NCBI GenBank assembly: GCA_017996215.1
Contig: JAGOHL010000017.1
Coordinates: 1-60,117, forward strand
Length of the DNA stretch: 60,117 nucleotides
DNA from: Nannocystaceae bacterium
Lineage (GTDB): Bacteria; Myxococcota_A; Polyangia; Nannocystales; Nannocystaceae
Direction of reading: 5' to 3'
This document shows, one piece after another, positions 5,604-41,647 of this stretch (the first letter of the stretch is position 1; every line of letters starts with the position of its first letter). Made by a program: the position numbers and the translations under genes. Under the pieces are notes generated by a model, which ran no database searches, had not been told where the DNA came from, and saw only the letters and a program-made list of their open reading frames with translations.

Positions 5604-5651
5604 GCGTTCGGCCGCTCCATCGCGGACGGACGCTGCGTGTTCATCCGCTGC

Positions 5652-6386: not shown

Positions 6387-6444
6387 TGCCGCGCGGTAGA
6401 GAACCGAGCGGGTCGAATCGATTGCGCCGCCGGTGTGGCGGCCG

Positions 6445-6922
6445 TCACGACCCGTCGCAGGCGAGCGCCTGGGTCGAGGGCTGCCACGGGTCGGGGGTCA
6501 CCGTGAACACGCGCTGCGTGGCCTCGCGCGTGCGCAGCACCAGCTCGCGGAGCTCGTCGTCGTCGTAGCCCGCTGCGATCCAACGCGAGCGCATAGACCG
6601 TGCGCGCGTCATCGATCGCGACCGGCGCGACCCCGCCGTACCGCGAACCACCGAGGTCGTCCCACCGCGTGAGCTCGTCGCCGCTCTCGGCATCGATGAT
6701 GCTCACCCACCGATCGATCGCGGACTCGTCGTACCTCGGCGAGACCGAGCCCTCGTCGACGCCACCGACTACGAGCCAGTGGCCATCGGGTGAGGCGACC
6801 GTCCCGATTCGGGCGAAGGGGAACCACCGCACCCACGTCGCCTCCGGCTCGTCCGCGGGTGTGCGGCACGCCAGCAGCCCGAAGAGGGCGACGACCGCGA
6901 CACGCCGATCCTTCGCGCGCAC
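6445..6922 (-). pseudogene. Hypothetical lipoprotein, apparent +1 frameshift (or sequencing error) near 6600
   Basis: GTG start at 6922 gives a textbook lipoprotein signal (M)RAKDRRVAVVALFGLLAC. Protein-like sequence (...IGTVASPDGHWLVVGGVDEG...TVYALAL) then continues in a different frame (WIAAGYDDDELRELVLRTREATQRVFTVTPDPWQPSTQALACDGS*, ORF 6445-6693). Total length 478 nt is not divisible by 3. Confidence 0.5.
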
Positions 6923-6985
6923 GCAGCCATGGTCGCACGGCGCGTGGTCATTGACGAGCTGGCGGCGCTCGGGAAGCATCGAGCC

Positions 6986-7645
6986 ATGACGACGGTGACG
7001 CAGCGAGCTCGGTGGTTGATGGTGTTCTCCCTGTCGCTCGCCTGCGAGCGCGCGGCCACGACGACGCCGGAGCCGGCAACGACGGCGACCGGCTCGGGCG
7101 CGGCCGCCAGCAGCAGTCTCGACGCCGAGCTCGTCGCCATCGCGCGCAAGCAGGGCGTCGCGCAGAAGGCCAAGCTGCGCGTCGACGGCAGCGGCAACCT
7201 GCAGAAGCAGTCGCTCTACCACAGCGATGCCGCCGCGGTGCCCGAGGCCGCACGCGCGCTGGTCGAGAAGCGGTGGCCGGGCGCCAAGGTGCGCGGCTAC
7301 GAGTCCGAGCGCTACGCCGAGCATGGACGCGTCGACGAGATCGAGGTCACCACCGCCGAGGGTGCCGAGTGCGAGCTGGCCGTGAAGCAGGACGGCTCGA
7401 CGCTCTACGAGGAGTGCCGCATCGCGCTCGACGCGATGCCGCCCGCGGTCGCGAGCAAGGTCGCGGCGCTGTTCCCCGATGGCAGCATCCACGAGGCCGA
7501 GACCAAGAAGGGCGAAGGCGTCGACGAGCTCACCATCGAGGTCACCGCCGGCGGCAAGGAGTACTACCTGCGCATGCGCCCCGACGGCGAGGTGCTCGCG
7601 AAGCTGCTGCGGATCCCCGCCGTGCTCGAGGTCCCGATCGACTGA
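6986..7645 (+). CDS. PepSY-like (beta-lactamase-inhibitor-like) domain lipoprotein
   Basis: MTTVTQRARWLMVFSLSLAC signal/lipobox. Two PepSY-like modules (EIEVTTAEGAECELAVKQDGSTLYEE; ELTIEVTAGGKEYYLRMRPDGEVL). Confidence 0.7.
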   Translation: MTTVTQRARWLMVFSLSLACERAATTTPEPATTATGSGAAASSSLDAELVAIARKQGVAQKAKLRVDGSGNLQKQSLYHSDAAAVPEAARALVEKRWPGAKVRGYESERYAEHGRVDEIEVTTAEGAECELAVKQDGSTLYEECRIALDAMPPAVASKVAALFPDGSIHEAETKKGEGVDELTIEVTAGGKEYYLRMRPDGEVLAKLLRIPAVLEVPID

Positions 7646-7688
7646 CGCGCGTCCCCACCGCGCGGCGCATTCGTCTACATTGCGGCCC

Positions 7689-8366
7689 GTGCCCGACCGC
7701 ACCCGTGAGCTCCTCGTCGGACCCGCCCCTGATCGCCCGCGCACGAGCACCGGTGAGATCCTGCAGGTACCCGCGGGCTGGGAGCTGCTGCCGCCCGGCG
7801 ATGCCGGCCTCACGCGGCGCGTGAAGGCGGCAGGTCCGACATGGACGATCCGCGAACCCAAGGGTCGCAAGATGTTCTCGCGCGGACTGTGGGCCCCGCG
7901 CGAGACCATCGCCCGCGAGCGCGCCAAGCTCGATGAGGAGCGCGCCGATCCACGTTGGGCGCAGCGCCTCGAGGCCGATCGCCGCCGTCGTGACGCCGCG
8001 CAATCGGAGTACGTCGAGACCTTCTTCGCGGCGGTCTATCGATTCCTCGCCTTTGCCGACCGCCACCGCGAGCTCGCCGCGTTGGTCGCCAAGGCGATCA
8101 CCGATCACGCGGTGCCGGTCGGCAGCGGCACCGTCGCGCGCACGCAGCGGATCCCGATCGAGCGCCGCGCCGAGGCAGCGACCATCGCATGGCTGCGGCA
8201 CCAGACCACCGCCTATGACAGCATGTCGATCCCGCGGGTCCGTGGCATGCGACGCGAGGTCCGGCGCCTGCTCGCCGAGCAATCGCGACGCGTGCTCGGT
8301 CGCTATCGCAGCAGCGAAGCGGTCGACGAGGCCACATGCGTGCTGCGACGCGCCTTGCGAGCGTGA
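7689..8366 (+). CDS. DUF2293-like protein (hypothetical)
   Basis: Protein-like region from ~7680 onward. Motif AATIAWLRHQTTAYDSMSIPRVRGMRREVRRLL resembles the DUF2293 core (from memory). Start is uncertain (GTG 7689 or TTG 7680); the upstream part of the ORF overlaps the PepSY gene and is junk-like. Confidence 0.5.
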   Translation: MPDRTRELLVGPAPDRPRTSTGEILQVPAGWELLPPGDAGLTRRVKAAGPTWTIREPKGRKMFSRGLWAPRETIARERAKLDEERADPRWAQRLEADRRRRDAAQSEYVETFFAAVYRFLAFADRHRELAALVAKAITDHAVPVGSGTVARTQRIPIERRAEAATIAWLRHQTTAYDSMSIPRVRGMRREVRRLLAEQSRRVLGRYRSSEAVDEATCVLRRALRA

Positions 8367-8381
8367 CACGCGGACGCAGAG

Positions 8382-9758
8382 CTACCCGACCGGTGGCGGA
8401 GGCGGCGGCGGCTTGTCGTGGCACACGCTGATCTCGAGGATCATGTACAGCAAGATGAGCTCCTGCGGATTCAACCCGGGGTGGGCGACGCTGGAGTTCT
8501 CGAAGGTGCTGTACATCATGCGGCCGCAGCCCCACTGACCGCTGATCGCCATGGGGCGGATCTTCGTCGGGTCGCTGCAGCTCGTGCACGGGCCCTCGAC
8601 CCAGGTGTGGTGGCCGACGTCGACGTCCATGCCATCCTCGTCTTGCACGATGATCGGCGTGGTCGACTCGATGCCAGAGTAGTTGAGCTGCAGCTCGACG
8701 CTCGGCAGCGCGTTCAGTGTCGGGTTGCCGCCGCCGATGTCCTTCAAGCCAGGCGGCAGCGCCTGCAGCCACGCGAGCAGCTCGTCATCGACCACGCTGC
8801 CGTTCACGTCGTAGGCGGGCTGGATGTCCGGCATCCCCGGCGAGTGGAACTCTTGGTAGTCGGCGAACGGGGCCTCGATGTACTCGTTCGAGTGATCGGT
8901 GGCGTACCACTTGCCGCCGCCGGCCACGTAGTCGCGGATGTTCTGCGCGCGGAGGATCGGCACCGACGGCGCGCCCAGCCAGAACTTCGTCGCCGCGCAG
9001 GGCACGAAGATGATGTGGTACTGGCTCATGCCGATGAAGTCGTCCATGAACGCGCCCTGATCGGAATCCGAGATCAACGTGAACTGCTGCGTGCCGGGCA
9101 CGAGCTCGCCGTTGGCGGACACCTCGCCGAGCCCGAACTTCGCGAGCACGTTGAACACGCGATCGGGATCGGTCTCGTACACCGCGATCTTGGGGATCCA
9201 CATGCCCGCCGCGGGGTTCCATTCGCCGGGTAGGCTGCTCTGCTCGGCCGGCACCGGGTTGCCGCCCTCGACGACGTCGAAGTCGACGACGCGGAGGAAC
9301 TCGCCCTTCTGCACCACCAGCTGCTGGCCGGGGCCCGCGGTCGCCGGCAGCGAGAAGCTGCCGTCGGGCTCGGTGAGCACGAACGGCGTGTCGCACGAGA
9401 GCTCGACGCACGACGAGCAGTAGACCTTGTCGGGCACCGGCTCGACCTCGTCGTCGGTGAGGTAGACCAGCGCGCCGCTGATCGGGATCTGCATGTTGGG
9501 CGCGTAGACCGTGCCCGTGAGCGTCGCGTTGGACCCGGGCAAGGGCGGGCAATCGTTGCCGCCCTCCTCGCCACCGCCGGTCACACCCCCCTCGCCGATG
9601 TCGAAGCGCTCGCCGGTGTCCACCCCGATCGGGCCCGTGCTCGGGCTGCTCCCCGCGGTGTTGGCCGTGACGCTGACCTCGACGGGATCCTCGCGCACCG
9701 TGGTCCCACACGCCCCAAGCGACAGGGACACGACCGACAGCAGTGGCACGGCGCGCAT
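8382..9758 (-). CDS. Secreted lipoprotein with carboxypeptidase-regulatory-like N-domain, C-terminal poly-Pro tail; function unknown
   Basis: Internal ATG at 9758 gives MRAVPLLSVVSLSLGACGTT (signal plus lipobox). TGTVYAPNMQIPISGALVYL resembles a CarboxypepD_reg beta-sandwich. The ORF extension upstream of 9758 is junk-like. Confidence 0.7.
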   Translation of the reverse strand: MRAVPLLSVVSLSLGACGTTVREDPVEVSVTANTAGSSPSTGPIGVDTGERFDIGEGGVTGGGEEGGNDCPPLPGSNATLTGTVYAPNMQIPISGALVYLTDDEVEPVPDKVYCSSCVELSCDTPFVLTEPDGSFSLPATAGPGQQLVVQKGEFLRVVDFDVVEGGNPVPAEQSSLPGEWNPAAGMWIPKIAVYETDPDRVFNVLAKFGLGEVSANGELVPGTQQFTLISDSDQGAFMDDFIGMSQYHIIFVPCAATKFWLGAPSVPILRAQNIRDYVAGGGKWYATDHSNEYIEAPFADYQEFHSPGMPDIQPAYDVNGSVVDDELLAWLQALPPGLKDIGGGNPTLNALPSVELQLNYSGIESTTPIIVQDEDGMDVDVGHHTWVEGPCTSCSDPTKIRPMAISGQWGCGRMMYSTFENSSVAHPGLNPQELILLYMILEISVCHDKPPPPPPPVG

Positions 9759-9903
9759 GGTGCCGGCCACGTTACCCCAGGGCGCCCCGCGGTTCCTGAT
9801 CCGGCTAGGATTTCGTGTGGCGCTGGATGGGCTGAGGTGGTCAGGGACGCCGCGTCGGCGCGCAGGTTCGCGCGGCCGAGCGCGGCGGCCCACCCGCTGC
9901 GCG

Positions 9904-11208
9904 TCATAGACACGCGCAGAGGTTGATCGCGCCCGGCGACACACCGTAGGGACCCGCGTCGCAGTGGCTGATCGCGACCTTCGGGCCCCGCGAGTGCGCA
10001 CAGACCGAGGCCGGACACACGCCGAACGGAACATACACGCCACACGTGTCGAGCGGGAGCAGCTCGATGACGTCCTTCACCACGCCGGCGCCACCGATGA
10101 GTCCGCCGAGGCCACCGTCAGGGCGGGGCGCCTTCTTCGCTTCGGCAGCGATGGTGGTCGCGAGCATCTGCATCGGTTCGGTCGTGCCGCGGCCCACGAA
10201 CGCGTGGCTGCCGTCGTCGCCGCGAAACCACACGTCGCCGCAGACGGTCCGCATGTCGCCGCCGTCGAGTTCGTCGAGCAGCGATGCCGCGCCGAGGTTG
10301 AAGCGGTCGGCGGTCGTGAAGCTCGCGCCCGCGAAATCGATGGCAACGGTGAGGCCACCGGTGCTGTCGAGGGTTGCCGCTTCGTCGGCCGCGAGCCGTA
10401 CACCGATGCGGAACTCGGGCAGCTCCTGCAGCGGGAACGCAACGGAGTACAGGTTCTCCGCGGGGTCGAAGTCGCCGGGCGTCACGACGATCTCCACCGC
10501 CGTCGTGCCCTCCAGCACGTCGACGATCGATGGCGTCCGCTCCTCGATCGGCGATGCCGTCATCGTGCCGAGCGCACCAGGACGCAGGACCCAGCTCGCC
10601 TCACCCGCATCGGCATACGGCAGTGCCGACTCGTAGTTGCCCGCCGTGTAGGCAGCGACCAGGTCGCTGCTGTCGACATCGCCATCCCCATCGAAGTCGC
10701 CCTCGGCCCAGCCGACCTCGCCATCGACGTCGGGCGACTCGTAGTGCCCAGACTCGAACATCGCGACGAGATCGTCCGACCCGAAGCGACCATCGCAGTT
10801 CGCATCGCCCGGCTGCGGTCGCAGCAGCGTGATCTCTGCATCGACGGAGCCAGACACCGTCACGGTGTGGTAGCCCGGCGCGACGCCGGCGTCGGGCAGG
10901 ATGAGCGCGACGAAGCGCCCCGACCCGCTGGGCGCGAGCTCGAGCGGGAAGCCGTCGAGCGTCGCATCGAGCGCGAAGACGCCCGCCGTCTCCTCGACCG
11001 AGCCATCGAAGCCGACCGCCAGGATTGCGCCCTCCCCATGCGGGGTCCAGCAGTGCGGCGCGGCGAGGCGGCCGTCGAGCACGGCCGCCCAGGTCGCCGC
11101 AGGCGTCTGCGCCCGCGTGGGGTTCTCGAGCTCCAGGGCTGCGCGGGGACTCTCGTTGTCCGCGCAAGCAACGAGGACGAGCAAGGTCATGAGGTGATGT
11201 CGACACAT
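9904..11208 (-). CDS. Secreted lipoprotein with dockerin-like Ca-binding repeat pair and Cys-rich C-terminus
   Basis: ATG at 11208 (GGAAG 9 nt upstream) gives MCRHHLMTLLVLVACADNE. DANCDGRFGSDDLVAMF...GDFDGDGDVDSSDLVAAYTAG is a dockerin type I-like tandem. The C-terminus carries 8 Cys. Confidence 0.7.
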   Translation of the reverse strand: MCRHHLMTLLVLVACADNESPRAALELENPTRAQTPAATWAAVLDGRLAAPHCWTPHGEGAILAVGFDGSVEETAGVFALDATLDGFPLELAPSGSGRFVALILPDAGVAPGYHTVTVSGSVDAEITLLRPQPGDANCDGRFGSDDLVAMFESGHYESPDVDGEVGWAEGDFDGDGDVDSSDLVAAYTAGNYESALPYADAGEASWVLRPGALGTMTASPIEERTPSIVDVLEGTTAVEIVVTPGDFDPAENLYSVAFPLQELPEFRIGVRLAADEAATLDSTGGLTVAIDFAGASFTTADRFNLGAASLLDELDGGDMRTVCGDVWFRGDDGSHAFVGRGTTEPMQMLATTIAAEAKKAPRPDGGLGGLIGGAGVVKDVIELLPLDTCGVYVPFGVCPASVCAHSRGPKVAISHCDAGPYGVSPGAINLCACL

Positions 11209-11315
11209 GTTCATTTGCTTCCACCATCCGCGGCCGCCGGCCGCCATCGGGTTCGCAGATGGATTGCCGGTCGAGTCGAAACGGATGCATGATTTCGTGT
11301 GGTCGGGTGGGTGGC

Positions 11316-13865
11316 ATGACGGGTGGTGATGGCGACGACGCGGCGTTCGGCCGTGCGCTGGGAGACGTGCGGCAACTCGAGCTCGCGGACGAAGCGACCG
11401 TGCGCGCCGAGCTGTTCGCGCGGATGGGCATCGCTCCGATCGCCCCGCGCCTCGGAGGTCGCTACACACTCGGTCGTCGCCTCGGAAGCGGCGGTTCTGG
11501 GGCGGTCTACGCCGCGCGTGACGACAAGCTCGGTCGCGACGTCGCCATCAAGCTCGTGCGCGTCGGCGGCCTCGATGGCTTCGATGACTCGGCCTCCGAG
11601 GGTCGACTACGCCGCGAGGCGAGAGCCATCGCGCGTCTCGCCCATCCGAACATCGTCGCGGTGTTCGATCTCGGTCGCTACGACTTCGGCGAGCTCGGCT
11701 ACGAGCTCGCCGACGCTCCGGCGCGCGGCCTGTACCTCGTCATGGAGCTCGTCGACGGTGGTGACCTCGCCGGGTGGGCGGCCTCGGGGGCGAGCTTCGC
11801 CGCGCGCATCGAAGTCTTGATCGGCGTCGCCCGCGGTCTGCACGCAGCTCACGGCGCGGGCCTGGTCCACCGCGACGTCAAGCCGGCGAACGTCATCATC
11901 GCCCGCGACGGGACGCCGAAGCTCGCGGACTTCGGTCTCGCGCGCCCCCCGGCGGAGACGACCCGAGATGCCGGGTCAGCGGACGATGACGAGGCGCCGC
12001 GCGACGACGTGACGGCACACGGCACGGTCGTCGGAACGCTGCCGTACATGGCGCCCGAGCAGTTCGGCGGCAGCTCGAGCGCCGCAAGCGATCAGTACGC
12101 GTTCTGCGTCACGGCGGTGGAAATCCTGCTGGGTGAACGGCCGTTCGTCGGTGACGCGAGCGAACAACTCGCGGCGAAGCGCGCTGGCCGAGCCCCCGCG
12201 CTCGAGCGACTGCCGCCGCGACTGCGCGCTGCGCTGCAACGCGGCCTGTGCACGGATCCCGCGGATCGATTTGGGTCGATGCTCGAGCTGAGCGAAGCGC
12301 TCGCCCCGGCGCCACAACGGCGCTTCGCACTCGTCGGCGCCGCGGCGCTCCTCGGCATCGCACTCGCAGGGTGGATCGCCACCCCCGACGACGCCTGTGC
12401 ACCGCTCGCGCGGGCCGCCAGTGCGGTCGAGCGCATGCCGTCGGCGGCCGCACTCGCCGCGACACTCGAAGACGAGGCATCGCGCCTTCGCGCCACACAT
12501 GCGGCCTGCCTCACCCTCGACGACCCGGACACGCGCGCGTGCATGGGCCAGCGTGGTCGTCAGCACGAGCGCCTGCTCGCGAGTCTCGGCGACATCGATG
12601 CCCCTGCGATGCTCCGAGCGTTCCACGCGCTACCCCCCGCCGACGAGTGTGTCGCGCTGCGTGCGGTCGCGTCGGCACCGCCCGAAGCGCTCCGCGACGG
12701 TGTCGATGCCGTGCACGAGTTCGTCGTCACCGCACGAGCACTCGCCGACGCAGGCGAGCTCGAATCTGCAGCGGTCCAGGCGGGTCACGCCATCGCGACC
12801 GCACGGCGCCTCGACTGGCCGCCGGCGCTCGTCGAGGCCAGCATCGTGCACGCGCACGTCGAGTTCGGCCTCGGCCGGGTCGACGCCGCAGAGATCGAGC
12901 TCGTCGACGCCTACTGGTCGGCGGTCGAGCTCGGCAATCTGCCGGAGACCGAGCGCGCGGCTGAGCATCTCGCCCACCTGCACGGCCGTCCTGGAGGCGA
13001 CCGCGGCGAGGCGGAGCGCTGGGAGAAGCGCGCGAATGCCTCGCTCGACGGCATGGGCCGACCACCGTTCGTCGAGGCTCGCCTCGCCGCGATCCGCGGT
13101 GCGAACCGCAACGCGTGGCACGACGAGCCGGCAGCCATCGTCGAGTTCCGCCACGCGCTCGCACTGCTCGAAGCGCAGGGTCTCGACTACCGTCGACAGA
13201 TCGCGACCCTGTCGAGCAACCTCGGCGAGATGCTCACACGGACTGGCCAGCACGCCGAGGCGGAGCGCATGCTGCTGCGTGCGATCGAGCTCGGCGACCC
13301 GGAGGGCATCGCATCGGTTCCCGCCCTGATGCACCTCTCGACCCTGCGACGATCGCAACAACGCCTCGACGAGGCCGACGCGCTGATCCGCGACGCGATT
13401 GCGCGGCTCGACACGGCGGCACCTGCCGGCCATCCATGGCGCGGGCAGATCTTCAACAACCTCGGGGTCATCGCAACACTGCGGCCGGACTTTGCGTCCG
13501 CGGCCGACGCGTTCGCGACCGCGGTGCGATCGCACGAGCAGCTCGGCCTGCGCGACGCAGCGTGGGCGGGGTACCACAAGAACTGGGCCACCGCGGCGGC
13601 GCGCATGCACGAGTGGAGCACGGCGATCGAGCACTTCGAGATTGCGCTCGCGGTGCTCACGAGCGCCGACCCTCGCCGCGACCAAGCGCTCGTCGGCCTC
13701 GCCGAAGCCAACCTCGAACTCGGTGACGTCTCGGCCGCCGCGACCCGCCTGCGCGAGGTCGACCCGTCCCTGCTGGCCCGCGATGCGAGCATGGTGGCCG
13801 AAGTCGACGCGCTGCGCGCTCGCATCACCGCCGCCGAGGCCGAGCGGATAGGATCCCCCGAGTGA
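11316..13865 (+). CDS. Ser/Thr protein kinase (Hanks-type) with long C-terminal TPR/helical repeat domain
   Basis: Gly loop LGSGGSGAVYAA, VAIK, HRDVKPANVII, DFGLA, APE motif. ~590-aa C-terminal helical region. Start at ATG 11316 with GGTGG upstream. Confidence 0.9.
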   Translation: MTGGDGDDAAFGRALGDVRQLELADEATVRAELFARMGIAPIAPRLGGRYTLGRRLGSGGSGAVYAARDDKLGRDVAIKLVRVGGLDGFDDSASEGRLRREARAIARLAHPNIVAVFDLGRYDFGELGYELADAPARGLYLVMELVDGGDLAGWAASGASFAARIEVLIGVARGLHAAHGAGLVHRDVKPANVIIARDGTPKLADFGLARPPAETTRDAGSADDDEAPRDDVTAHGTVVGTLPYMAPEQFGGSSSAASDQYAFCVTAVEILLGERPFVGDASEQLAAKRAGRAPALERLPPRLRAALQRGLCTDPADRFGSMLELSEALAPAPQRRFALVGAAALLGIALAGWIATPDDACAPLARAASAVERMPSAAALAATLEDEASRLRATHAACLTLDDPDTRACMGQRGRQHERLLASLGDIDAPAMLRAFHALPPADECVALRAVASAPPEALRDGVDAVHEFVVTARALADAGELESAAVQAGHAIATARRLDWPPALVEASIVHAHVEFGLGRVDAAEIELVDAYWSAVELGNLPETERAAEHLAHLHGRPGGDRGEAERWEKRANASLDGMGRPPFVEARLAAIRGANRNAWHDEPAAIVEFRHALALLEAQGLDYRRQIATLSSNLGEMLTRTGQHAEAERMLLRAIELGDPEGIASVPALMHLSTLRRSQQRLDEADALIRDAIARLDTAAPAGHPWRGQIFNNLGVIATLRPDFASAADAFATAVRSHEQLGLRDAAWAGYHKNWATAAARMHEWSTAIEHFEIALAVLTSADPRRDQALVGLAEANLELGDVSAAATRLREVDPSLLARDASMVAEVDALRARITAAEAERIGSPE

Positions 13866-14473
13866 CGGAGATCGGTGACGAAGCGCTGCTCGCGGCATGG
13901 CAGGCCGGCGACAAGGCTGCCGGCGACGTGCTCGTGCGACGCTACTTCTCGCTGCTGTTCCGATTCCTCAAGCCGCGTGTCGCCGAGCACACGGCCGACC
14001 TCGCGCAGCGCACGTTTCTCGCCATCTCGCAGTCACACGAGCGGATCCCTGCGGGCGTCAGCTTTCGCGCCTGGCTCCTGGGGGTCGCGCGCAACCAACT
14101 GCTCGCGTTCGGGCGCGCGAGCGCAAGGCGCTCTCTCGTGGTCGGCGGCGCGCCGATCTCGGGGGTCGCAGGCGACGCGACGCCCAGCGAAGTCGTCGCG
14201 CACCGCGAGGAGCAGCGCGTCTTGCTTCGCGGACTGCGAACCCTCCCGATCGAGATGCAGCTCGTGATCGAGCTCTTCTACTGGGAGAACATGTCGCGGG
14301 AGGAGATCGCGGCGGTGCTCGGCGTCGAGACCAATACCGTCAAGTCGCGACTGCAGCGCGCCAAGGATCGCCTGCGCGAGCTGCTCCCGCGGCTCGATCC
14401 CGTGACCGGCAGCGTGACGGCGGCCGATCTGGAGCGCTGGGCGCAGTCACTGCGTCCGCCGGATTCGGCCTGA
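13862..14473 (+). CDS. ECF-family RNA polymerase sigma-70 factor
   Basis: GTG start overlaps the kinase stop (GTGA). Region 2 (RAWLLGVARNQLL) and region 4.2 (YWENMSREEIAAVLGVETNTVKSRLQRAKDRLRE) are present. Confidence 0.88.
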   Translation: MTEIGDEALLAAWQAGDKAAGDVLVRRYFSLLFRFLKPRVAEHTADLAQRTFLAISQSHERIPAGVSFRAWLLGVARNQLLAFGRASARRSLVVGGAPISGVAGDATPSEVVAHREEQRVLLRGLRTLPIEMQLVIELFYWENMSREEIAAVLGVETNTVKSRLQRAKDRLRELLPRLDPVTGSVTAADLERWAQSLRPPDSA

Positions 14474-14638
14474 CGCGAGTCCGTCGACGCCGCGAACCAC
14501 TGCGCCCCCGTTGCGAGTGTTCTCCTCCGGCCGCACCCGACGGTCGGGACACCGGTCGAACGATCGTCCGCTGCGCGCTACCGATCGATCACGCGACCTC
14601 GGGTTGCATGCCCCGCGTCGTCCGGCACCCTGTCCGCG

Positions 14639-16156
14639 TTGTCGAACGAGACCACCGCGGTGCGCAGCCTCGTTCCCGCGCGGATGGACCGCCTGCCGTG
14701 GAGCGGGTTCCACTGGCGGGTCGTCATCGCGCTCGGCATCACATGGGTGCTCGACGGCGTCGAGATCGGTCTCGCGAGCGCGATCGGTGACACGCTGCGC
14801 GACGAGCAGACGCTTGGCCTCGACGCCCAGACCATCGGCTTCAGCGCGGGGTTGTACCTCGCGGGTGAGGTCACCGGCGCACTGTACTTTGGTCGCAAGG
14901 CCGACGAGCTCGGCCGCCGGCGATTGTTCATCGTCACGCTCGCGCTCTACCTGCTCGCGAACGCACTGACGGCGCTGTCGTGGACGACGTGGTTCTTCGT
15001 CGCGACGCGCTTCTTCGCGGGCATGGGAATCGGCGGCGAGTATGCGGCGATCCACAGTGCGATCGACGAGCTCACGCCCGCGAAGTACCGAGGCCGGGTC
15101 GACATCGCGATCGCCGGCACGTACTGGGGCGGCGCACTCCTGGCCGCGACGGCGCAGCTGCTGCTGCTCGATCCCGAGCTCATTCCGATCGACCTCGGCT
15201 GGCGCCTCGCGTTGCTGCTCGGTCCCGTGATCGGCCTCGCGATCTGGCCGCTGCGCAGGTTCATCCCCGAGAGCCCGCGCTGGCAGCTCACACACGGCTA
15301 CGAACAGGAGGCCGAGGCCACCGTCGCGCGCATCGAGGCCGGCCTGCGCGACGCGGGCGTGCAGCTCGACGACGTCGATCCCGCGCACGCCATCGTGCTG
15401 CAGCGCCACGACCTCGGCCTCGTCGAGGTGGGCAGGATACTCGTGACGAAGTACCTGCGACGGTTGTGGCTCGCCGCGACGCTGATGATCACGCAGTCGT
15501 TCCTCTACAACGCGATCTTCTTCACCTACGTGCTGATCCTGCGCGACTTCTACGACGTGCCGAGCGCATCCGTCGGCTGGTACATCTTCGCGTTCGCCGG
15601 CGGGAATCTGCTGGGCCCGTTCGTGCTCGGGCCAGCGTTCGACACCATCGGGCGACGCAAGATGATCGCGGCGACCTACTGCACGTCCGCGCTCTTGCTC
15701 GCGATCACGGCGTGGCTGTTCGGCCGAGGCATGCTCACGGCGCAATCCCAGACGGTGCTGTGGTGCGTGATCTTCTTCATCGCATCGGCCGCGGCATCGT
15801 CGGCCTATCTCACCGTGAGCGAGATCTTCCCCGTCGAGATCCGCGCGCAGTCGATCGCACTCGTGTTCGCCGTCGCGCAGGGGGTCGGCGCCACGGCACC
15901 GGCGATCTTCGGGGCAATCATCGAGGCGGCAAAGGACCCCGCGACCGGTGCGGTCGTCTCACGTCTGCCGCTGGCGCTGGCGTACCTCGGCAGCGCGGCG
16001 ATCATGGCCGGTGGTGGCGTGGTGGCGTGGCTGTTCGGCGTCGATGCCGAGCAGCGATCGCTCGAAGACATCGCGCCGCCGATCACCTCGGTCGCGGTGT
16101 CGCATGCGACAGCCGCCGATGCGCCGGCCGGTCCGCCTCCGCCCGGCACCGTCTGA
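14639..16156 (+). CDS. MFS transporter
   Basis: 12 predicted TM segments. MFS signature around GRKADELGRRRLF (G-x-x-x-D-R/K-x-G-R-R). TTG at 14639 or ATG at 14684 (MDRLPWSG...). Confidence 0.88.
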   Translation: MSNETTAVRSLVPARMDRLPWSGFHWRVVIALGITWVLDGVEIGLASAIGDTLRDEQTLGLDAQTIGFSAGLYLAGEVTGALYFGRKADELGRRRLFIVTLALYLLANALTALSWTTWFFVATRFFAGMGIGGEYAAIHSAIDELTPAKYRGRVDIAIAGTYWGGALLAATAQLLLLDPELIPIDLGWRLALLLGPVIGLAIWPLRRFIPESPRWQLTHGYEQEAEATVARIEAGLRDAGVQLDDVDPAHAIVLQRHDLGLVEVGRILVTKYLRRLWLAATLMITQSFLYNAIFFTYVLILRDFYDVPSASVGWYIFAFAGGNLLGPFVLGPAFDTIGRRKMIAATYCTSALLLAITAWLFGRGMLTAQSQTVLWCVIFFIASAAASSAYLTVSEIFPVEIRAQSIALVFAVAQGVGATAPAIFGAIIEAAKDPATGAVVSRLPLALAYLGSAAIMAGGGVVAWLFGVDAEQRSLEDIAPPITSVAVSHATAADAPAGPPPPGTV

Positions 16157-16185
16157 TCGCCCGCATCCGGGGTGGCGCGATGCCC

Positions 16186-17172
16186 TCAGCGTGGGCGATC
16201 GTGTCGATGCACCCGGTGCGGCCGATGCCGCCCCGGCGGCTGCGCGCTCGCTTCGGCGACCGCGTCCTCGGCGAGGAAGCGTTCGGCCACGTCGACGTGC
16301 TCGTCGAAGTACTGCTTCTCCTGCGGAGAGCAGAACGCGAAGGTCTTGCCTGCCAGCGTCGAGGTCAACGTGGGATCGGCGTCCATCCAGCACAGCGGGC
16401 ACTTCGGTGCGGCCGAGCCGGCATCGGGCATGCGAGCGTACTCGCCGTTCGACGCAGCGTCGTGCCACCCCGGCCCTTGGTACTCCATGCCATCGGCGAT
16501 CGAACGAGCGCTGGACTCTCCGAGATATCTTGCGACCACGCGGAGTGCGAGGTCGATCCCCGACGAGATTCCGCCGGACGATGCGAGGTTGCCCGACTCG
16601 GTGAAGCGCGCCCCCCGAAGCACGGAGACCGCTGGAAAGTCGCCTGCCAGGCGAAAGTAGCCCCCGTGATGCGCCGTCGTCGCCTTGCCGTCGAGCAGTC
16701 CCGCGCGGGCGAGCACGAAGGCACCGTTGCACACCGACATCGTGACGTCGGTCTCGGGTGAGACGGTGCGGAGCCACTCCAGCATGTCGGGCGTCTCGCC
16801 GGTCAACGCGGGGATCACGACGACCTTGGGTGGCGGCGCGTCGGCGAAGGTGTAGTCGGGGATCACCTGCATGCCGCCGAACACACGCACCGGATCGCGC
16901 GTCTGCGCGACGAAGTACGGCTCGAAGAGCGGATGTCCATCCTCCGTCCACGCCGCCGCGAAGACCTCGAGTGGCCCCGTGAAGTCGAGCACTTCGGCGT
17001 CGGGCCCGAGCACGATCGCCAGCGGCAACTCGCCGCCGGGCGGGACCGGCAGCGGCGAGGGGACCTGCGTGGCCGCTCGCGCGACCGGCTCGGCCGCCGC
17101 GTCGAGCGGTGCGTGGCGATCCGATGGGCCGCGCGCGCACGCGACGACAGCAAGTGTGAGCGCGAGCCTCAT
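16186..17172 (-). CDS. DJ-1/PfpI family (class I glutamine amidotransferase-like) lipoprotein with C-terminal YHS domain
   Basis: Internal ATG 17172 gives MRLALTLAVVACARG. DJ-1/PfpI core around the nucleophile-elbow Cys (TMSVCNGAFVLARAGLLDG). C-terminal KCPLCWMDADPTL...KTFAFCSPQEKQYFDEH is a YHS/TRASH-type metal-binding module. The upstream ~2.9 kb of the ORF is antisense junk. Confidence 0.82.
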   Translation of the reverse strand: MRLALTLAVVACARGPSDRHAPLDAAAEPVARAATQVPSPLPVPPGGELPLAIVLGPDAEVLDFTGPLEVFAAAWTEDGHPLFEPYFVAQTRDPVRVFGGMQVIPDYTFADAPPPKVVVIPALTGETPDMLEWLRTVSPETDVTMSVCNGAFVLARAGLLDGKATTAHHGGYFRLAGDFPAVSVLRGARFTESGNLASSGGISSGIDLALRVVARYLGESSARSIADGMEYQGPGWHDAASNGEYARMPDAGSAAPKCPLCWMDADPTLTSTLAGKTFAFCSPQEKQYFDEHVDVAERFLAEDAVAEASAQPPGRHRPHRVHRHDRPR

Positions 17173-17469
17173 TCGCCCACGCCAGACGTCGATCACGGCG
17201 CCACCGTGAGTGTCACGTCTCGCAGCTGTGGGTCGGCTGCAATGTCGACCTCGCGGAAGGGGAAGTCGAACCACTCGCCCAGCGTCGAACAGAGCTTCGG
17301 TACGCACACGAGTCGTCTCACGCGATCGACATAACAGGGTCCGAACTCGACGAGGTGTGGTGAAACTTCGCAGCGTCACTTCGCGGCGGCCCGCAAGCAG
17401 CCCCCGCGCGAAAGCACCGCAGGTGCAGCCGCTCGACGCCCCAACGACGCCGCGGGTAGTGTCTGCGCG

Positions 17470-18564
17470 ATGCTCGATGCGTCGTTGCGGATCGTTTGGA
17501 TCGCGCTGCTCGCTGGTGGGTGTGCAGGCGCCATCCCGCCGCGCGAGCGCACAGCCCCGCCACCGCGCGACGAAGCCGACACGGCGGCAACCATCGCACG
17601 CACGCACGCGCTGTTCGACGCCATCGATCGCGGAGACACGGGCGCGGTCGATCGGCAGCTGGCTCCCGGCTTCTTCGTGCTCGACCGCGGCCGCCGCTTC
17701 GATCGACCGCTGTTCCTGACGGGGGTCGACCGGCACGACCGAGCCCCCACGAGCCCGCGAAGCTGCAGCCAGGAGGAGGTCCACACCCATGGCTCGACGG
17801 CAGCCTACGTCGCCGAGTGCAGCGAACCCGGTGCGCACTCCGATGGCCTTCGAGCGAGCCATCGCTACACCCTGCACTGGTCGCGCGACAGCGGCACGTG
17901 GCAACTGCTGAGCCTCCAGCTCGAGCGCGGCGGGGTCGAGGACGCGCGCGAGCTTTGGAATGACATCTTCTCGCAGCGAGCTGGCTTCTCCACCGAGCCC
18001 AACGCGCTGCTCACGAGCACCATCGCTGGGCGCACTCCCGGTCGAGCGCTCGATGTGATGATGGGACAGGGCCGCAACGCGCTCCAGCTGGCGGCCGCGG
18101 GCTGGGACGTGACCGGGATCGACATCTCCGACGAAGCGCTCCGGCAAGCCACCGAGGCCGCGCAGGCGCGCGGCCTCGCACTGCAAACCGAGCTCGTCGA
18201 CACCTCCAGCTTCGACTTCGGCCACGCTCGATGGGACCTCGTCGCGCTGATCTACGCCGGCGTCGAGCCCGAGCTGTTGTCTCGCGTCGAGCAGGCAGTC
18301 GCACCCGGCGGCATCGTGGTGATCGAGTACTTCGCGAGCGAGTCCGTGGTCGGCGACAACCTCGGTGGCGCGACGCCAGGCCAGCTTGCGCGGGCGTTCC
18401 GCGGCTGGAGCATCATCCGCGACGAGCGCGCGGAGGACGTTGCGGACTGGGGTCTGGGTCGGACGCTCCTCGCGCGCTTCGTCGCCCAGAAGCCGTCGCC
18501 ACCGCCACCGAGTTCCGGCCTTGGCGCCCCCACCGACCGCACGCACGGGGTGCGGCAAGATTGA
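17470..18564 (+). CDS. Fusion lipoprotein: SnoaL-like/DUF4440 (NTF2-fold) domain + class I SAM-dependent methyltransferase (TehB-like)
   Basis: MLDASLRIVWIALLAGGCAG signal/lipobox. NTF2-like N-domain (ALFDAIDRGDTGAVDRQLAPGF...HRYTLHWSRDSGTWQLLSLQ). Methyltransferase motif I LDVMMGQGRNALQLAAAGWDVTGIDIS and later motifs. Confidence 0.82.
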   Translation: MLDASLRIVWIALLAGGCAGAIPPRERTAPPPRDEADTAATIARTHALFDAIDRGDTGAVDRQLAPGFFVLDRGRRFDRPLFLTGVDRHDRAPTSPRSCSQEEVHTHGSTAAYVAECSEPGAHSDGLRASHRYTLHWSRDSGTWQLLSLQLERGGVEDARELWNDIFSQRAGFSTEPNALLTSTIAGRTPGRALDVMMGQGRNALQLAAAGWDVTGIDISDEALRQATEAAQARGLALQTELVDTSSFDFGHARWDLVALIYAGVEPELLSRVEQAVAPGGIVVIEYFASESVVGDNLGGATPGQLARAFRGWSIIRDERAEDVADWGLGRTLLARFVAQKPSPPPPSSGLGAPTDRTHGVRQD

Positions 18565-18603
18565 TCGCGTCGGCGAACGCGCGGTCGTGGTAGCGATCGA
18601 AGC

Positions 18604-20007
18604 ATGCCGTTGCTCGCCCTGCTGCCGCTCCTGCTCGCCGCCGACCACGAGCTCTTCGGCAAGCCCGTCTTCCGGCCCGCACCGCCCGAGCAGCAGACCC
18701 TCGAGACGCGACGTGAGGGCTTCGAGCGCATGCTCGACGAGCGCGGCTGGGTGCAGATCGACGATCAGGTGCGCCCCGCCGCCGAGGACGGCAGCTTCGC
18801 GCAGCCGATCATGCCGCAGGCGGCGTGGAGCTCTCCGCCGCACCGCTCGACGATCTTCCTCAACTTCTTCGGCACCGAGAGCCTCAAGCCGGGCACGAAC
18901 TCCGACCTCGACGAGTCGTCGTGCCTGCAGGGCGAGATGCCGTGGCCCGGGTTCGGCGGGACCGAGCAGCAGGCGCTCGCGCTCATCGAGATCTTCGAGG
19001 TCAAGATGGCGCCGTACGGCGTGCGCATCGCCTATGACGAGCGTCCGCCATCGCATCTGCCATACGCGATGGTGATGATGGGCGGCTCCCCCAACATGCT
19101 GGGCCTCGGCAACGGTGTGCTGGGCGTGTCGTGCAGCTCGGACTGCGGCGACTTCTGGTGGCGTGACACCACCTTTGCGTTCACCGATGCCATCAACCCC
19201 AACAACGCCGATGTGCTCGGCACCACGGCACTGCACGAGGCTGCCCACGCATTCGGTCTCGCTCACATCGACGATGCCACGCGGATCATGAATCCATTCG
19301 TCGGTAGCGGTGACGTCGATTGGGCCACCACGTGCACGCCCTACAACGACGCCACCGGCGGCATCAATTGCCAGCCGACCCACGACGAGTTCTGCGGCGG
19401 TGGTGCGCAGAACTCGGACGCCGAGCTCCTGGCCTACTTCGGCGAGAACAGCCCCGACATCGAGCCTCCGGTGGTCGAGATCCTCTCCCCGGCCGATGGC
19501 ACCGAACTCGAGGTCGGTGGCAGCGTGATGGTCGAGGCCGAGATCACCGACGATCACGAGGGCGTGGGCTGGAAGCTCGTACTCCCCGAGGTGGGGCAGG
19601 AGTCGGTGGCGTATCAGTTCGAGAAGAGCTGGCCGCTCGGCAACCTCCCCGCCGGCGTGTACACGCTGCGCGTCGAGGCCATCGACCACGATCGCAACGA
19701 AGCCTTCGACGAGGTGACGATCTACGTCGGCGTGGATGCTCCAGCCGGGACCAGCGGCAGCGGTGGCGACTCGGAGGGCGGCGGCGTCGACTCGAGCGGG
19801 AGCGGCGGTGGTGAGGACGGCACCGGCTCGTCGGATGCAGGCGCGACCACCGACGTCGACGGCGGCAATCAGGATGCCAGTACCGTGGACAAGGAGGGCT
19901 GCGCGTGCGCTGCCACGACGCCCTCGCCGCGGACCCCCTCCGTGCTGCTGGCGGCGGGCTTGCTGATGCTGCGCCGCCGCCGACGCTCGTGCGTCGCGGC
20001 GCGGTAG
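18604..20007 (+). CDS. Secreted zinc metalloprotease (HExxHxxGxxH metzincin-type) with Gly/Ser-rich linker and MYXO-CTERM sorting domain
   Basis: ALHEAAHAFGLAHIDD (HExxHxxGxxH). C-terminal ...GCACAATTPSPRTPSVLLAAGLLMLRRRRRS is a canonical MYXO-CTERM (GCxC + hydrophobic + Arg cluster). Confidence 0.85.
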   Translation: MPLLALLPLLLAADHELFGKPVFRPAPPEQQTLETRREGFERMLDERGWVQIDDQVRPAAEDGSFAQPIMPQAAWSSPPHRSTIFLNFFGTESLKPGTNSDLDESSCLQGEMPWPGFGGTEQQALALIEIFEVKMAPYGVRIAYDERPPSHLPYAMVMMGGSPNMLGLGNGVLGVSCSSDCGDFWWRDTTFAFTDAINPNNADVLGTTALHEAAHAFGLAHIDDATRIMNPFVGSGDVDWATTCTPYNDATGGINCQPTHDEFCGGGAQNSDAELLAYFGENSPDIEPPVVEILSPADGTELEVGGSVMVEAEITDDHEGVGWKLVLPEVGQESVAYQFEKSWPLGNLPAGVYTLRVEAIDHDRNEAFDEVTIYVGVDAPAGTSGSGGDSEGGGVDSSGSGGGEDGTGSSDAGATTDVDGGNQDASTVDKEGCACAATTPSPRTPSVLLAAGLLMLRRRRRSCVAAR

Positions 20008-20139
20008 CAGCGTCCGCGCGATCGAGCGTTGCGGCACCTGAGGCGGCGACGCATGCGTCCTCTCGCAGCCGGCTGCGGTGAATCACCACGGTCGTTCGAC
20101 TCGCCCGCGCCATCAGAGGCTGCTAGACCGCCGTCGACC

Positions 20140-21327
20140 ATGCGACGCACGCGGACCTCCGAGGATGCACACGACCAGACTCCGAACGCCGCTGCGCGCG
20201 ATGCAGACCAGCCCCCCCGCGTCTCATCGCGGGTCCTCGCACGCATGGTCCCGATCGCGCTGGTGCTGTGCGCAGCGCTCGCGGGGGGCACGGCGATGTT
20301 CCTGCGACACTATCGTGCCGAGGCCAGCGATGCCGATCGATTCGCCTCGCTGCATGGCGACCACGCGCGTCTCGAGTCGCTGTGGTCACTCCCGCCGTTC
20401 CAGCTGCGAGACCAACACGATCGCCCGTTCGGCCTCGCGGCGCTCCGCGGCCGCCCGTTCATCGCCGATTTCATCTTCACGCAGTGCACCAGCGTGTGCC
20501 CCACGCTGACCTCGAACATGCTGCTCGTGCGAGATCGACTGCACGACCGCGATGTCCAGTTCGTTTCGTTCTCGGTCGACCCTGCCCATGACACACCGGC
20601 CGTGCTCTCCGACTACGCCGCACGCTGGGGTGCCGTCGGCGACGACTGGACGCTGCTATCGAGCTCGTCGGCGCAGCTGAGCGACGTGCTCGCCGGGTTC
20701 CGCGTCGCTGCGCGCCCCACCGACGATCCGAGCGAACCGATCGTGCACACCAACCTCTTCTTCCTGGTGGACGCCACCGGCACCGTGCGCGGCATCTACC
20801 ACAGTGACATGACGTCCGATCTCGACGCGCTGGTCGAGGACGCCCGCGTACTGGCGGCACCGCGGGTCGGCAGCGACCCGGCCCCGCGCACCATCGCGAG
20901 CCTCGGATGCACCGGCTGTCACGCCTCACCCGCCATCGCACCACCGCTGGGAGGGTCGCTCGGCGAAACACGAATGACCGATGACGGACGACGGGTCACG
21001 GTCGACGCGGCGTACCTGCGGCGAGCGCTGCTCGATCCGCGCGCGGACGTCGTAGCGGGGTATCCCGGCGTCATGCCGAGCTACGCCGGTGTCCTCAGCG
21101 ATGCGGAGGTCGACGAGATCCTCGACCAGCTGCGGTCCATGACCGACGCGGCTCCGCCAGCGACGCCAGCCGCCCTCGCGATCGATCCCGTGTGCGGCAT
21201 GAAGGTGCGCGTCACCCCGGACGCGCACCACGCTCGCCACGACGGCGAGGATGTCTACTTCTGCGCCGAGGCGTGCAAGGACGCGTTCCTCGCTGCGCCG
21301 GCGCAGTACGAACGACACCGGCAGTGA
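20140..21327 (+). CDS. SCO1/SenC-family copper chaperone fused to a c-type cytochrome (CxxCH) module and C-terminal YHS domain
   Basis: TM anchor MVPIALVLCAALAGG. SCO1 CxxxC motif FIFTQCTSVCPTLTSNM plus downstream conserved His. Heme-binding CTGCH. C-terminal DPVCGMKVRVTPDAHHARHDGEDVYFCAEACKDAF is a YHS domain. Start candidates at 20140 and 20245. Confidence 0.82.
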   Translation: MRRTRTSEDAHDQTPNAAARDADQPPRVSSRVLARMVPIALVLCAALAGGTAMFLRHYRAEASDADRFASLHGDHARLESLWSLPPFQLRDQHDRPFGLAALRGRPFIADFIFTQCTSVCPTLTSNMLLVRDRLHDRDVQFVSFSVDPAHDTPAVLSDYAARWGAVGDDWTLLSSSSAQLSDVLAGFRVAARPTDDPSEPIVHTNLFFLVDATGTVRGIYHSDMTSDLDALVEDARVLAAPRVGSDPAPRTIASLGCTGCHASPAIAPPLGGSLGETRMTDDGRRVTVDAAYLRRALLDPRADVVAGYPGVMPSYAGVLSDAEVDEILDQLRSMTDAAPPATPAALAIDPVCGMKVRVTPDAHHARHDGEDVYFCAEACKDAFLAAPAQYERHRQ

Positions 21328-21385
21328 CGTTGGCGGCCTGACGTTCCGCATCCGACGGGGTGCGGTGTCGCGGCGGGCCCGTCAG

Positions 21386-22195
21386 ATGCGCGGCCGACGG
21401 ATGCAATGGTTTGCACGGCCCATGGCGTTCACGCGAAAGTTCATCCTCGTCGTCGTCGCGCTGGCGGTGGTCGCCGCGACCTGGATCGTCACGATCTGGC
21501 CGCGCGCGCGCGAAACGGAGCCCGACGGTCCTGCGCCCGTCGTGCGGCAGGAGCCGCGGAGCGCAGGCATGCACGGCACGACCGACGCCCACCCGCGTGC
21601 GAAGTCGGCCGCGCCCATCAGCCCAGCCGAAGCCGAGGCGCGACGCGTCGCGCGTGCCCGCTGGGAGGAGCGACGGGCCCGCATCCTCGCCGCCCACGCG
21701 ACGCCGGCCGAGCGCGACGCAGCACCGGAGACACCGAAGTGTGTCGGCGAGGATTGCCCGCCCGATCCGGCCGACTTCGGCGGCGACGTCGTGTTCGCGT
21801 CGTTCGTCGGCGAGACCCAGACGCTCACACGTGGCTGCGAGGAGCTCATGGGTGAGAAGCCGCAGTCGGTGCGGATCAACGCGCGGCTCGTCGGCGCGCC
21901 CGGGGTCGGCACCATCGTCGACAATGTCACCGTCACCGGCCCCGGCGAATCCATGGACGAGCTCACCCAGTGCCTCCAGCAGGGCATGTACACCCTCGAG
22001 CTCGGCGACGCCGCGGCGAACTTCGAACGCGACGCGACGCTGGTGCTCGGCCTACTCGACGAGGTCGCCGGTCAGCAGTGGCTGTCGCCGGAGGAGCTCG
22101 CGGGGATCCGGCAGCAGATGATCGATGGCGGACTCGACCCGGCCGCCGATCCGATGGTCTCGGTCAACGCCGGCGAGCCCGCCGCCGAGCCGTGA
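21386..22195 (+). CDS. Hypothetical membrane-anchored protein
   Basis: MRGRRMQWFARPMAFTRKFILVVVALAVVAATWIVTIW gives an N-terminal TM anchor. No recognisable domain. The rest of the ORF upstream is junk-like. Confidence 0.5.
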   Translation: MRGRRMQWFARPMAFTRKFILVVVALAVVAATWIVTIWPRARETEPDGPAPVVRQEPRSAGMHGTTDAHPRAKSAAPISPAEAEARRVARARWEERRARILAAHATPAERDAAPETPKCVGEDCPPDPADFGGDVVFASFVGETQTLTRGCEELMGEKPQSVRINARLVGAPGVGTIVDNVTVTGPGESMDELTQCLQQGMYTLELGDAAANFERDATLVLGLLDEVAGQQWLSPEELAGIRQQMIDGGLDPAADPMVSVNAGEPAAEP

Positions 22196-41637: not shown

Positions 41638-41647
41638 GAACCGAATC

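Follow-up and report, generated by a model that had tools for sequence, protein, structure and literature searches.

Two YHS-containing fusion proteins encoded side by side in a Nannocystaceae bacterium belong to separate, widespread and uncharacterised families

Results and Discussion

A 60,117-nucleotide contig of a Nannocystaceae bacterium (GenBank assembly GCA_017996215.1, contig JAGOHL010000017.1; the whole stretch, with a G+C content of 70%, is referred to here as the window) encodes two proteins that end in YHS-type domains, a DJ-1/PfpI–YHS lipoprotein and a three-module SCO1–cytochrome c–YHS protein (the SCO fusion). Both are members of large uncharacterised families. The explanation favoured here, and held to be moderately probable, is that two independent periplasm-facing metal-handling proteins, an SCO chaperone and a DJ-1 enzyme, lie by chance 3 kb apart in the lineage of the window. 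The result for the window itself is mostly deflationary, in that what a first-pass annotation had described as a copper and haem neighbourhood consists of ordinary members of two widespread fusion families. A profile scan of the six-frame translation found exactly two YHS-like domains in the 60-kb window. Both genes were found where that annotation had placed them, with the start of the DJ-1–YHS gene moved eight codons upstream by the NCBI model. The features of the two genes are as follows (AF2, AlphaFold 2).

16186-17196, − strand: DJ-1/PfpI–YHS lipoprotein gene, with a GTG start at 17196 as in the NCBI model
17137-17172, − strand: signal peptide with lipobox, MRLALTLAVVAC (translation and motif match)
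16474-17028, − strand: DJ-1/PfpI domain with an isocyanide-hydratase-like fold (Cys148 at 16729-16731, Glu69 at 16966-16968)
16264-16407, − strand: divergent YHS/TRASH domain, PKCPLCWMD…GKTFAFCSPQEK…H…RFLAED (profile comparison)
20140-21327, + strand: SCO1–cytochrome c–YHS gene, 395 residues (Pfam)
20245-20307, + strand: single transmembrane anchor, MVPIALVLCAALAGGTAMFLR (AF2 helix at residues 30-61)
20389-20856, + strand: SCO1/SenC thioredoxin-fold domain (CTSVC at 20485-20499, His203 at 20746-20748)
20896-21138, + strand: class I cytochrome c domain (CTGCH at 20908-20922, axial Met312 at 21073-21075)
21178-21318, + strand: canonical YHS domain, DPVCGMKV…YFCAEACKDAF (PF04945, 37.7 bits against a cut-off of 30.3)

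Distribution of the two architectures

Neither architecture is rare. A homologue search with the DJ-1–YHS protein returned 3,622 matches, the best 120 of which are full-length (E <1e-101), and about half of these 120 carry precomputed matches to both PF01965 and PF04945. Relatives are encoded in 328 stretches found by a scan of one genome per species, nearly all of them metagenome-assembled genomes; the hosts are mostly soil Acidobacteriota, Verrucomicrobiota, Planctomycetota and Myxococcota, together with Thermoanaerobaculia, Eisenbacteria and others, and the tail domain is kept across at least six phyla. The corresponding search with the SCO fusion gave 173 matches, with PF04945 and PF02630 occurring together in 108 of the 120 listed. 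The fusion has at least 170 relatives, to which the metagenome scan adds about 23 three-domain loci.

These counts contradict the initial description of the fusions as unusual. The possibility that the architectures would prove common and already annotated was borne out in part: both are common, and the Joint Genome Institute (JGI) names many DJ-1–YHS relatives 'putative intracellular protease/amidase/YHS domain-containing protein', but the database names for both fusions are generic only. No paper on either fusion was found in the literature, and a full-text search for 'YHS domain' together with 'DJ-1' found none; both architectures are uncharacterised.

Conservation of the neighbourhood

The genes that flank the two fusions are as follows.

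14639-16156, + strand: major facilitator superfamily (MFS) transporter gene
17193-17276, − strand: penicillin-amidase remnant, the last 27 codons and stop (tblastn against the amidase of contig L088)
17470-18564, + strand: gene for a DUF4440/SnoaL-like–class I methyltransferase (TehB-like) lipoprotein (Pfam)
18604-20007, + strand: gene for a metzincin-type metalloprotease (HEAAHAFGLAH) with Big_7 and MYXO-CTERM (Pfam, TIGR03901)

The SnoaL–methyltransferase lipoprotein and the MYXO-CTERM metalloprotease were correctly described at the outset. The protease has the HExxHxxGxxH motif, with Peptidase_M10 at 21.2 bits (below the Pfam cut-off), Big_7 at 29.2 bits and, at its C-terminus, TIGR03901 at 24 bits against a cut-off of 20.

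The context of DJ-1–YHS genes was compared in 79 genome loci, with up to 10 kb per side where the contig permits, and that of the SCO fusion in 28 other three-domain loci; about 10 of these 28 contigs are shorter than 4 kb and therefore say little about neighbours. The gene order of the window is shared only by two contigs, L087 and L088, which are 91-98% identical to it in protein sequence. A methyltransferase-like gene, an MFS gene and an SCO-type gene each occur in one of the 79 DJ-1–YHS loci, the last of these as a split SCO system, and a three-domain SCO–cytochrome c–YHS gene occurs in none. No DJ-1–YHS gene or methyltransferase was found in the 28 other SCO-fusion loci, and the sister contig L088 is the only SCO locus with a methyltransferase-like gene. 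Clustering of the neighbours of the SCO fusion found no family beyond 3-5 of 24 loci; alternative-frame shadows account for most of these clusters. Among the neighbours with Pfam matches (21 loci) are two CusF proteins and one COX1; CcmH is encoded directly upstream of the SCO fusion in L007, and a CusF gene is divergent from it in L005. These scattered copper or haem genes lend support to a Cu(I)-donor role of the third module.

The sister contig L088 is revealing of the history of the locus. Its sequence is 95-96% identical to that of the window and holds an extra 2,808 bp (4322-7129) at window junction 17278/17279 (blastn), which encode a PvdQ-like penicillin amidase (781 residues, Penicil_amidase 333 bits) and a 195-residue lipoprotein, both in the orientation of the DJ-1–YHS gene, which lies 3.1 kb from the methyltransferase in this contig. 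The remnant in the window is 96% identical to residues 755-781 of the L088 amidase (tblastn), and its TGA overlaps the GTG start of the DJ-1–YHS gene (GTGA). Because the end of the amidase is kept, stop and start overlap and the orientation is opposite to that of the neighbouring genes, the DJ-1–YHS gene of the window is regarded as the remnant of a different operon and, to judge from these alignments, as the 3' part left when an amidase–DJ-1–YHS operon lost 2.8 kb. Penicillin amidase is absent as a recurrent partner from the 79 DJ-1–YHS loci.

One further locus, L025 from Acidobacteriaceae, is the only other at which a DJ-1–YHS gene adjoins an SCO/cytochrome c system; the genes for a CusF–SCO1 protein, a TehB-like methyltransferase and a cytochrome c lie about 3 kb from it or closer. 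In this locus (6336-12320) a siderophore-type TonB receptor gene overlaps the DJ-1–YHS gene by 4 bp; the opposite strand carries TauE, a small cytochrome c (CYECH) and the CusF–SCO1 fusion, and a TehB-like methyltransferase is encoded upstream.

The first-pass annotation had proposed that both YHS proteins form a single periplasmic copper-delivery or redox pathway serving the metzincin, the SnoaL–methyltransferase or both. Such a pathway would be consistent with four genes in 5 kb whose products are all exported or membrane-anchored, with the spacing of the three + strand genes, which are only 40 and 133 bp apart and so could be co-transcribed, and with the grouping of DJ-1–YHS, SCO/cytochrome c and TehB-like methyltransferase genes in L025. 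However, the arrangement is confined to two near-identical contigs, L087 and L088, no protease neighbour occurs at any of the 79 DJ-1–YHS loci or of the other 28 SCO-fusion loci, the DJ-1–YHS gene runs opposite to the other three and in L088 belongs to a separate operon behind the amidase, and the metal of metzincins is zinc, not copper. The proposal is therefore very unlikely. Because each fusion constitutes a large family and the two are side by side only in the lineage of the window, a shared copper pathway is not supported; the four-gene cluster does not recur in unrelated genomes, and the juxtaposition is lineage-specific, not a system.

The SCO1–cytochrome c–YHS protein

The gene model of the SCO fusion is matched by that of P0121, a protein 91% identical to it with an identical 395-residue gene model; an alternative start at 20245 would drop the cytoplasmic N-tail. 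The SCO1/SenC domain is matched by PF02630 at 91.6 bits and by PDB entry 4hde, both in sequence (E 6e-23) and in structure (Foldseek TMt 0.80). The cytochrome c segment scores 18-22 bits against the Pfam model Cytochrome_CBB3, under its cut-off of 27, and matches 1w2l, the cytochrome c domain of Rhodothermus caa3 oxidase subunit II, with an E value of 2.6e-11; 1w2l is the best solved relative of this module.

The residues expected to do the chemistry are invariant in an alignment of 103 homologues: C116, C120 and H203 of the SCO site, the haem c attachment and axial residues C257, C260, H261 and M312, and D349, P350, C352, M354, F374, C375 and C379 of the YHS domain (motif DPVCxM…FCSxxC). Together with the 1w2l match, the invariance of M312 places the CTGCH motif within a cytochrome c fold, as had been proposed. 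The AF2 model has a mean predicted local distance difference test (pLDDT) of 87.5 and a predicted template modelling score (pTM) of 0.82, with an N-terminal transmembrane helix, and the latter score suggests that the three modules form a single compact unit. Solved structures found by Foldseek cover the SCO part alone (TMq <= 0.37). From its sequence, the protein has a single helix as its membrane anchor and is predicted to face the periplasm.

The DJ-1/PfpI–YHS protein

The NCBI protein P0001, from a metagenome-assembled genome labelled 'Deltaproteobacteria bacterium', is 100% identical to the 336-residue DJ-1–YHS protein of the window. The GTG start at 17196 lies eight codons upstream of an alternative ATG at 17172, and is favoured because the sister contig L088 has Thr in place of the ATG codon. 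The lipobox LAVVAC (residues 7-12) was assigned by motif match alone, with the pattern [LVI][ASTVI][GAS]C behind a hydrophobic segment. Across the family, crude pattern matching found a motif resembling the twin-arginine (RR) signal of the Tat pathway in 43 of 111 sequences and a lipobox-like motif in 36 of 111, which is consistent with export of its members. The lipobox here and the transmembrane anchor of the SCO fusion both agree with the earlier prediction that the two proteins are periplasm-facing.

The DJ-1_PfpI model (PF01965) matches the enzyme domain at 41.3 bits against a cut-off of 26.6. The putative nucleophile Cys148 is invariant and Glu69 is at least 90% conserved among 111 sequences. 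Foldseek aligns the domain with DJ-1 and isocyanide hydratase (ICH) structures at E values of 1e-12 to 1e-16, the best match being 3NON (32% identity, root-mean-square deviation 1.9 Å, 191 columns, E 1e-16), and the best solved relative in sequence is the isocyanide hydratase of Pseudomonas fluorescens (E ~1e-19). The AF2 model (pLDDT 89.8, pTM 0.84) is confident across the linker and tail.

An assignment as isocyanide hydratase was considered and rejected. Of the ICH trio Cys101/Asp17/Thr102 only the Cys is kept, with Asp17 replaced by Glu69 and Thr102 by Asn149. In ICH the D17N mutant has a kcat 490-fold lower (PMC12570138). The protein is not filed as an ICH because Asp17, which matters for catalysis, and Thr102 are both replaced. 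An AraC-type regulator likewise does not fit, since Pfam finds no helix-turn-helix in the protein; the best NCBIfam models for its DJ-1 domain are FtrA (78 bits against a cut-off of 425) and GbdR (53 bits, far under its cut-off).

The assignment of the tail as a YHS domain fails on Pfam alone, as the window sequence scores 13.9-14.9 bits against a gathering cut-off of 30.3. At the family level, however, the tail is confirmed by profile comparison as a divergent YHS-type domain. All 17 of the 17 homologous tails tested match PF04945 (best E 1.8e-11), about half of the listed full-length homologues have a precomputed PF04945 match, and hhalign relates the tail family to the YHS domains of the SCO family with a probability of 98.7% (E 4.6e-16). 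At E <=0.001, a profile of the tail finds 2,533 proteins in the representative set; among the top matches, many contain several matched stretches and are apparently YHS-repeat proteins. The original domain assignments (DJ-1/PfpI lipoprotein, SCO1 CxxxC, CxxCH haem c and two YHS-type domains) hold, with Pfam by itself supporting SCO1, the YHS domain of the SCO fusion and DJ-1, but not the DJ-1 tail or the cytochrome c, both of which fall below cut-off and are rescued by the tail-profile and 1w2l matches.

In the tail, C-P-x-C-x-M replaces the canonical D-P-V-C-x-M, and F-C-[SAM]-x-x-[E/H/C] replaces F-C-S-x-x-C. C258, C261 and C281 are invariant in the 111 sequences, and the Met that follows is strongly conserved. 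The window copy reads C-x2-C-x19-C-x3-E, a fourth Cys being present in only a few members (e.g. P0087); the TRASH motif was reportedly defined by Ettema et al. (2003) as C-x2-C-x19-22-C-x3-C.

These features bear on the possibility that the tail is a structural zinc ribbon and the protein merely an exported detoxifying enzyme, such as a glyoxalase or amidase. TRASH/YHS domains belong to the treble-clef zinc-finger fold group (PMC4999995), the tail appears rigidly packed (pLDDT >90, with a pTM of 0.84 for the model), and its fourth ligand position is variable (E, H, C or D), all of which would suit a structural role. That role is nevertheless considered doubtful, as a domain kept across at least six phyla shows strong conservation of its three Cys and the following Met, and it leaves unexplained the recurrent operons with metal-chelate receptors described below.

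Recurrent contexts of DJ-1–YHS genes

The commonest neighbour of DJ-1–YHS genes is a GlxA/AraC regulator gene, with 55 of 75 loci having one adjacent in the same orientation, and the sensor domain of this regulator is a paralogue of the DJ-1 domain. An arrangement with the regulator upstream is also found in Eisenbacteria, Binatia, Gemmatimonadales, Terriglobales and Chlamydiota. In the loci of Verrucomicrobiota type (most of L027-L084), the helix-turn-helix region of the downstream GlxA/AraC regulator is 80-97% identical, and this identity spans genomes labelled Nitrospirota, Alphaproteobacteria, Dormibacterota and Limnocylindria, an indication of mis-binning or of transfer in the recent past.

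A second recurrent context is a TonB receptor gene 0-200 bp upstream on the same strand, found in eight loci: L001 and L002 (Anaeromyxobacter, with FecR and an extracytoplasmic function (ECF) sigma factor in addition), L008 (Thermoanaerobaculia), L019 (Verrucomicrobia), L025 and L026 (Acidobacteriaceae), L073 (a contig labelled 'beta proteobacterium') and L076 (Bryobacteraceae). All seven of the TonB receptors tested, six adjacent ones and a more distant one in L021, pass the siderophore-receptor cut-off of TIGR01783, and a copper-receptor model is listed for none of the seven. The closest genome relative of the window protein, in L008 (77% identity), is encoded within an island (766-16147) with FecCD, Peripla_BP_2, an ABC ATPase, PepSY_TM and two TonB receptors. 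The L008 contig, 16.5 kb long, also encodes a RepA_C plasmid replication protein, and the siderophore-uptake island may therefore be plasmid-borne.

In about 15 loci (L032, L039, L040, L068 and others), a gene for a CPBP/Rce1-like intramembrane protease is found at a distance of 1-2 kb from DJ-1–YHS; one such gene is found at 8941-9834 of L004, and in a Phycisphaerales genome the protease gene is directly downstream of DJ-1–YHS. These and the other recurrent clusters, including one of a peptidoglycan-binding protein, look like lineage-specific synteny, apparently of Verrucomicrobiota.

The copper theme first suggested for the DJ-1 fusion is not upheld by these contexts, in which siderophore-type TonB receptors and GlxA/AraC regulators recur rather than copper genes. 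In a narrower form, the DJ-1–YHS protein could still be a periplasmic copper protein, either a Cu(I) chaperone or sequestering protein or a processor of copper-chelating isonitriles, with Cys148 and the YHS cysteines handling copper. Its closest solved relative is an isocyanide hydratase, the Cys/Cys/Met/Cys set of the tail suits Cu(I), and the neighbouring amidase of L088 could deacylate a lipopeptide chelator; TonB receptors import copper chelates too, and human DJ-1 has been reported as copper-binding. Against this, Glu and Asn stand in place of the ICH residues Asp17 and Thr102, all seven tested receptors fit the siderophore subfamily, with a copper-receptor model listed for none of them, the L008 island is of Fec/Fhu type and resembles iron-siderophore systems, and copper genes stand beside DJ-1–YHS in only 1 of the 79 loci, so that a copper function for this protein is unlikely.

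Proposed functions of the two fusions

SCO1/SenC proteins are established copper chaperones for oxidases (PMC3817396, PMC6669012), and the cytochrome c domain of caa3 subunit II sits beside CuA and donates electrons to it (PMC5668878). In the favoured explanation, the SCO1 domain of the fusion would bind copper and perform thiol-disulfide chemistry on a client cuproenzyme, most likely a haem-copper oxidase at its CuA site, electrons from the class I cytochrome c module would hold the copper in the Cu(I) state or the cysteines in reduced form, and the C-terminal YHS domain (Cys/Met/Cys/Cys) would collect Cu(I) and pass it to the SCO site, the whole acting as a self-contained copper-insertion chaperone. 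Separate proteins of PCuAC or CusF type deliver Cu(I) to SCO in other bacteria. The CusF–SCO1 fusion and separate CYECH cytochrome c of L025 represent the same three functions rearranged, and therefore support the YHS domain as the Cu(I) donor; client and direction of electron flow are inferred.

The DJ-1–YHS protein would be an exported cysteine-dependent enzyme with a DJ-1-type Cys-Glu pair and a rigidly attached TRASH/YHS-like site of three Cys and a Glu or His. Its periplasmic substrate may be a small molecule or metal chelate taken up from outside, with the tail capturing or sensing the freed metal, a role proposed because the family adjoins GlxA/AraC regulators or follows siderophore-type TonB receptors. 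These contexts point to periplasmic metallophore processing over copper delivery, and the metal of the tail, like the substrate, would be a matter of inference, iron or zinc being as likely as copper.

Several observations weigh against this explanation of the two proteins. What is shown for the two families is their domains, residue conservation, export signals, size and gene contexts. Clustering of the SCO loci gave no conserved neighbour that points to a client, and no gene for an oxidase or other cuproenzyme was found among the scanned window genes (~2.7-58.5 kb). Many of the 55 regulator-linked DJ-1–YHS loci come from related soil Verrucomicrobiota and are therefore not independent, and neither a TonB receptor nor a GlxA regulator is encoded near the DJ-1–YHS gene of the window, to which the inference from the family may not transfer. 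The treble-clef kinship of YHS/TRASH domains (PMC4999995) means that the metal could be Zn, Fe or Cu and that the DJ-1 tail may be purely structural. Lastly, L025 and the window both pair DJ-1–YHS with an SCO/cytochrome c system and a TehB-like methyltransferase, which leaves a weak possibility of a link between the two fusions.

A more ambitious version of the favoured explanation would make the DJ-1–YHS family a periplasmic metallophore-processing class, in which, once the chelator has entered by a TonB-dependent route, the Cys-Glu pair cleaves or modifies it, the TRASH/YHS domain takes the metal and the GlxA-type neighbour senses the ligand in the cytoplasm, and would at the same time make SCO–cytochrome c–YHS a one-polypeptide copper-site assembler that replaces Sco, PCuAC and a reductase. 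This combined claim is tentative, and is put forward as a possibility of rather low probability.

Two leads of wider interest remain. As a compact three-module variant of Sco, both widespread and unstudied, SCO1–cytochrome c–YHS could reveal the coupling between electron supply, capture of Cu(I) and insertion of copper. The DJ-1/PfpI–YHS proteins form a large exported branch of the DJ-1 superfamily, of which the functions in bacteria are mostly uncharacterised, and their contexts yield a hypothesis that can be tested.

Other genes of the window

Upstream of the MFS transporter gene lie two further genes.

11259-13865, + strand: Ser/Thr kinase gene
13862-14473, + strand: ECF sigma factor gene

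Downstream of 21327 are genes without Pfam matches and one gene for an FG-GAP protein, and a promoter and terminator scan of 16000-21700 gave nothing informative. At 32746-35066 (− strand) a gene for an EgtD-like histidine methyltransferase (PF10017, 359 bits) adjoins one for an EgtB-like protein with DinB_2 and FGE-sulfatase domains, and together they resemble a gene pair for ergothioneine biosynthesis. The product of 35196-36164 (+ strand) is a secreted protein that contains a Spondin_N domain (109 bits); this domain is mainly familiar from animal extracellular matrix proteins. A resistance-nodulation-division (RND) efflux pair of membrane-fusion protein and AcrB-type pump (40426-45085, + strand) and a KAP-family P-loop NTPase of 1,364 residues (48912-53006, + strand) have no relation to the YHS fusions.

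Comparison with known systems

In its thioredoxin fold, its CxxxC motif with a His and its single membrane anchor, the SCO fusion resembles Sco/SenC chaperones such as BsSco and B. japonicum ScoI, and in its covalently linked c-type cytochrome, a built-in redox partner, it resembles Sco–cytochrome c fusions. A fusion of the latter kind, from Pseudomonas, is reportedly the subject of Banci et al. 2011 (J Biol Inorg Chem 16:391). The SCO fusion differs from both groups in the addition of a C-terminal YHS domain as a third module, and, unlike Sco/SenC systems, the copy in the window has no adjacent oxidase operon.

The DJ-1–YHS protein keeps the nucleophile-elbow Cys of ICH (3NON); unlike the cytoplasmic ICH, it is predicted to be exported, as a lipoprotein or Tat substrate, and it carries a linker of about 75 residues and a YHS/TRASH tail. 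It shares a related DJ-1-like domain with AraC regulators of the GlxA/FtrA/GbdR type, but differs from them in having a signal peptide and a predicted metal-binding tail in place of the DNA-binding domain. A further parallel is offered by PfeA–PfeE, in which a periplasmic siderophore-processing enzyme is encoded beside its TonB receptor. The loci of the DJ-1–YHS family that have a receptor gene followed by a gene for an exported hydrolase-like protein are organised similarly; unlike PfeE, the protein would belong to the DJ-1/PfpI superfamily rather than to the esterases, the copy in the window lacks a receptor, and the proposed role is drawn from context.

Both tails share motif and fold family with the YHS/TRASH domains of P1B-ATPases, NosL-related proteins and Campylobacter FetA. 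The DJ-1 tail departs from known YHS domains in having CPxC in place of DPVC and Glu or His in place of the last Cys, and both domains, unlike those of P1B-ATPase type, are fused to enzyme or chaperone modules and not to transporters. A precedent for a periplasmic YHS protein in metal uptake is FetA of the fetMP-fetABCDEF iron system, the function of which is also uncharacterised (PMC10783030).

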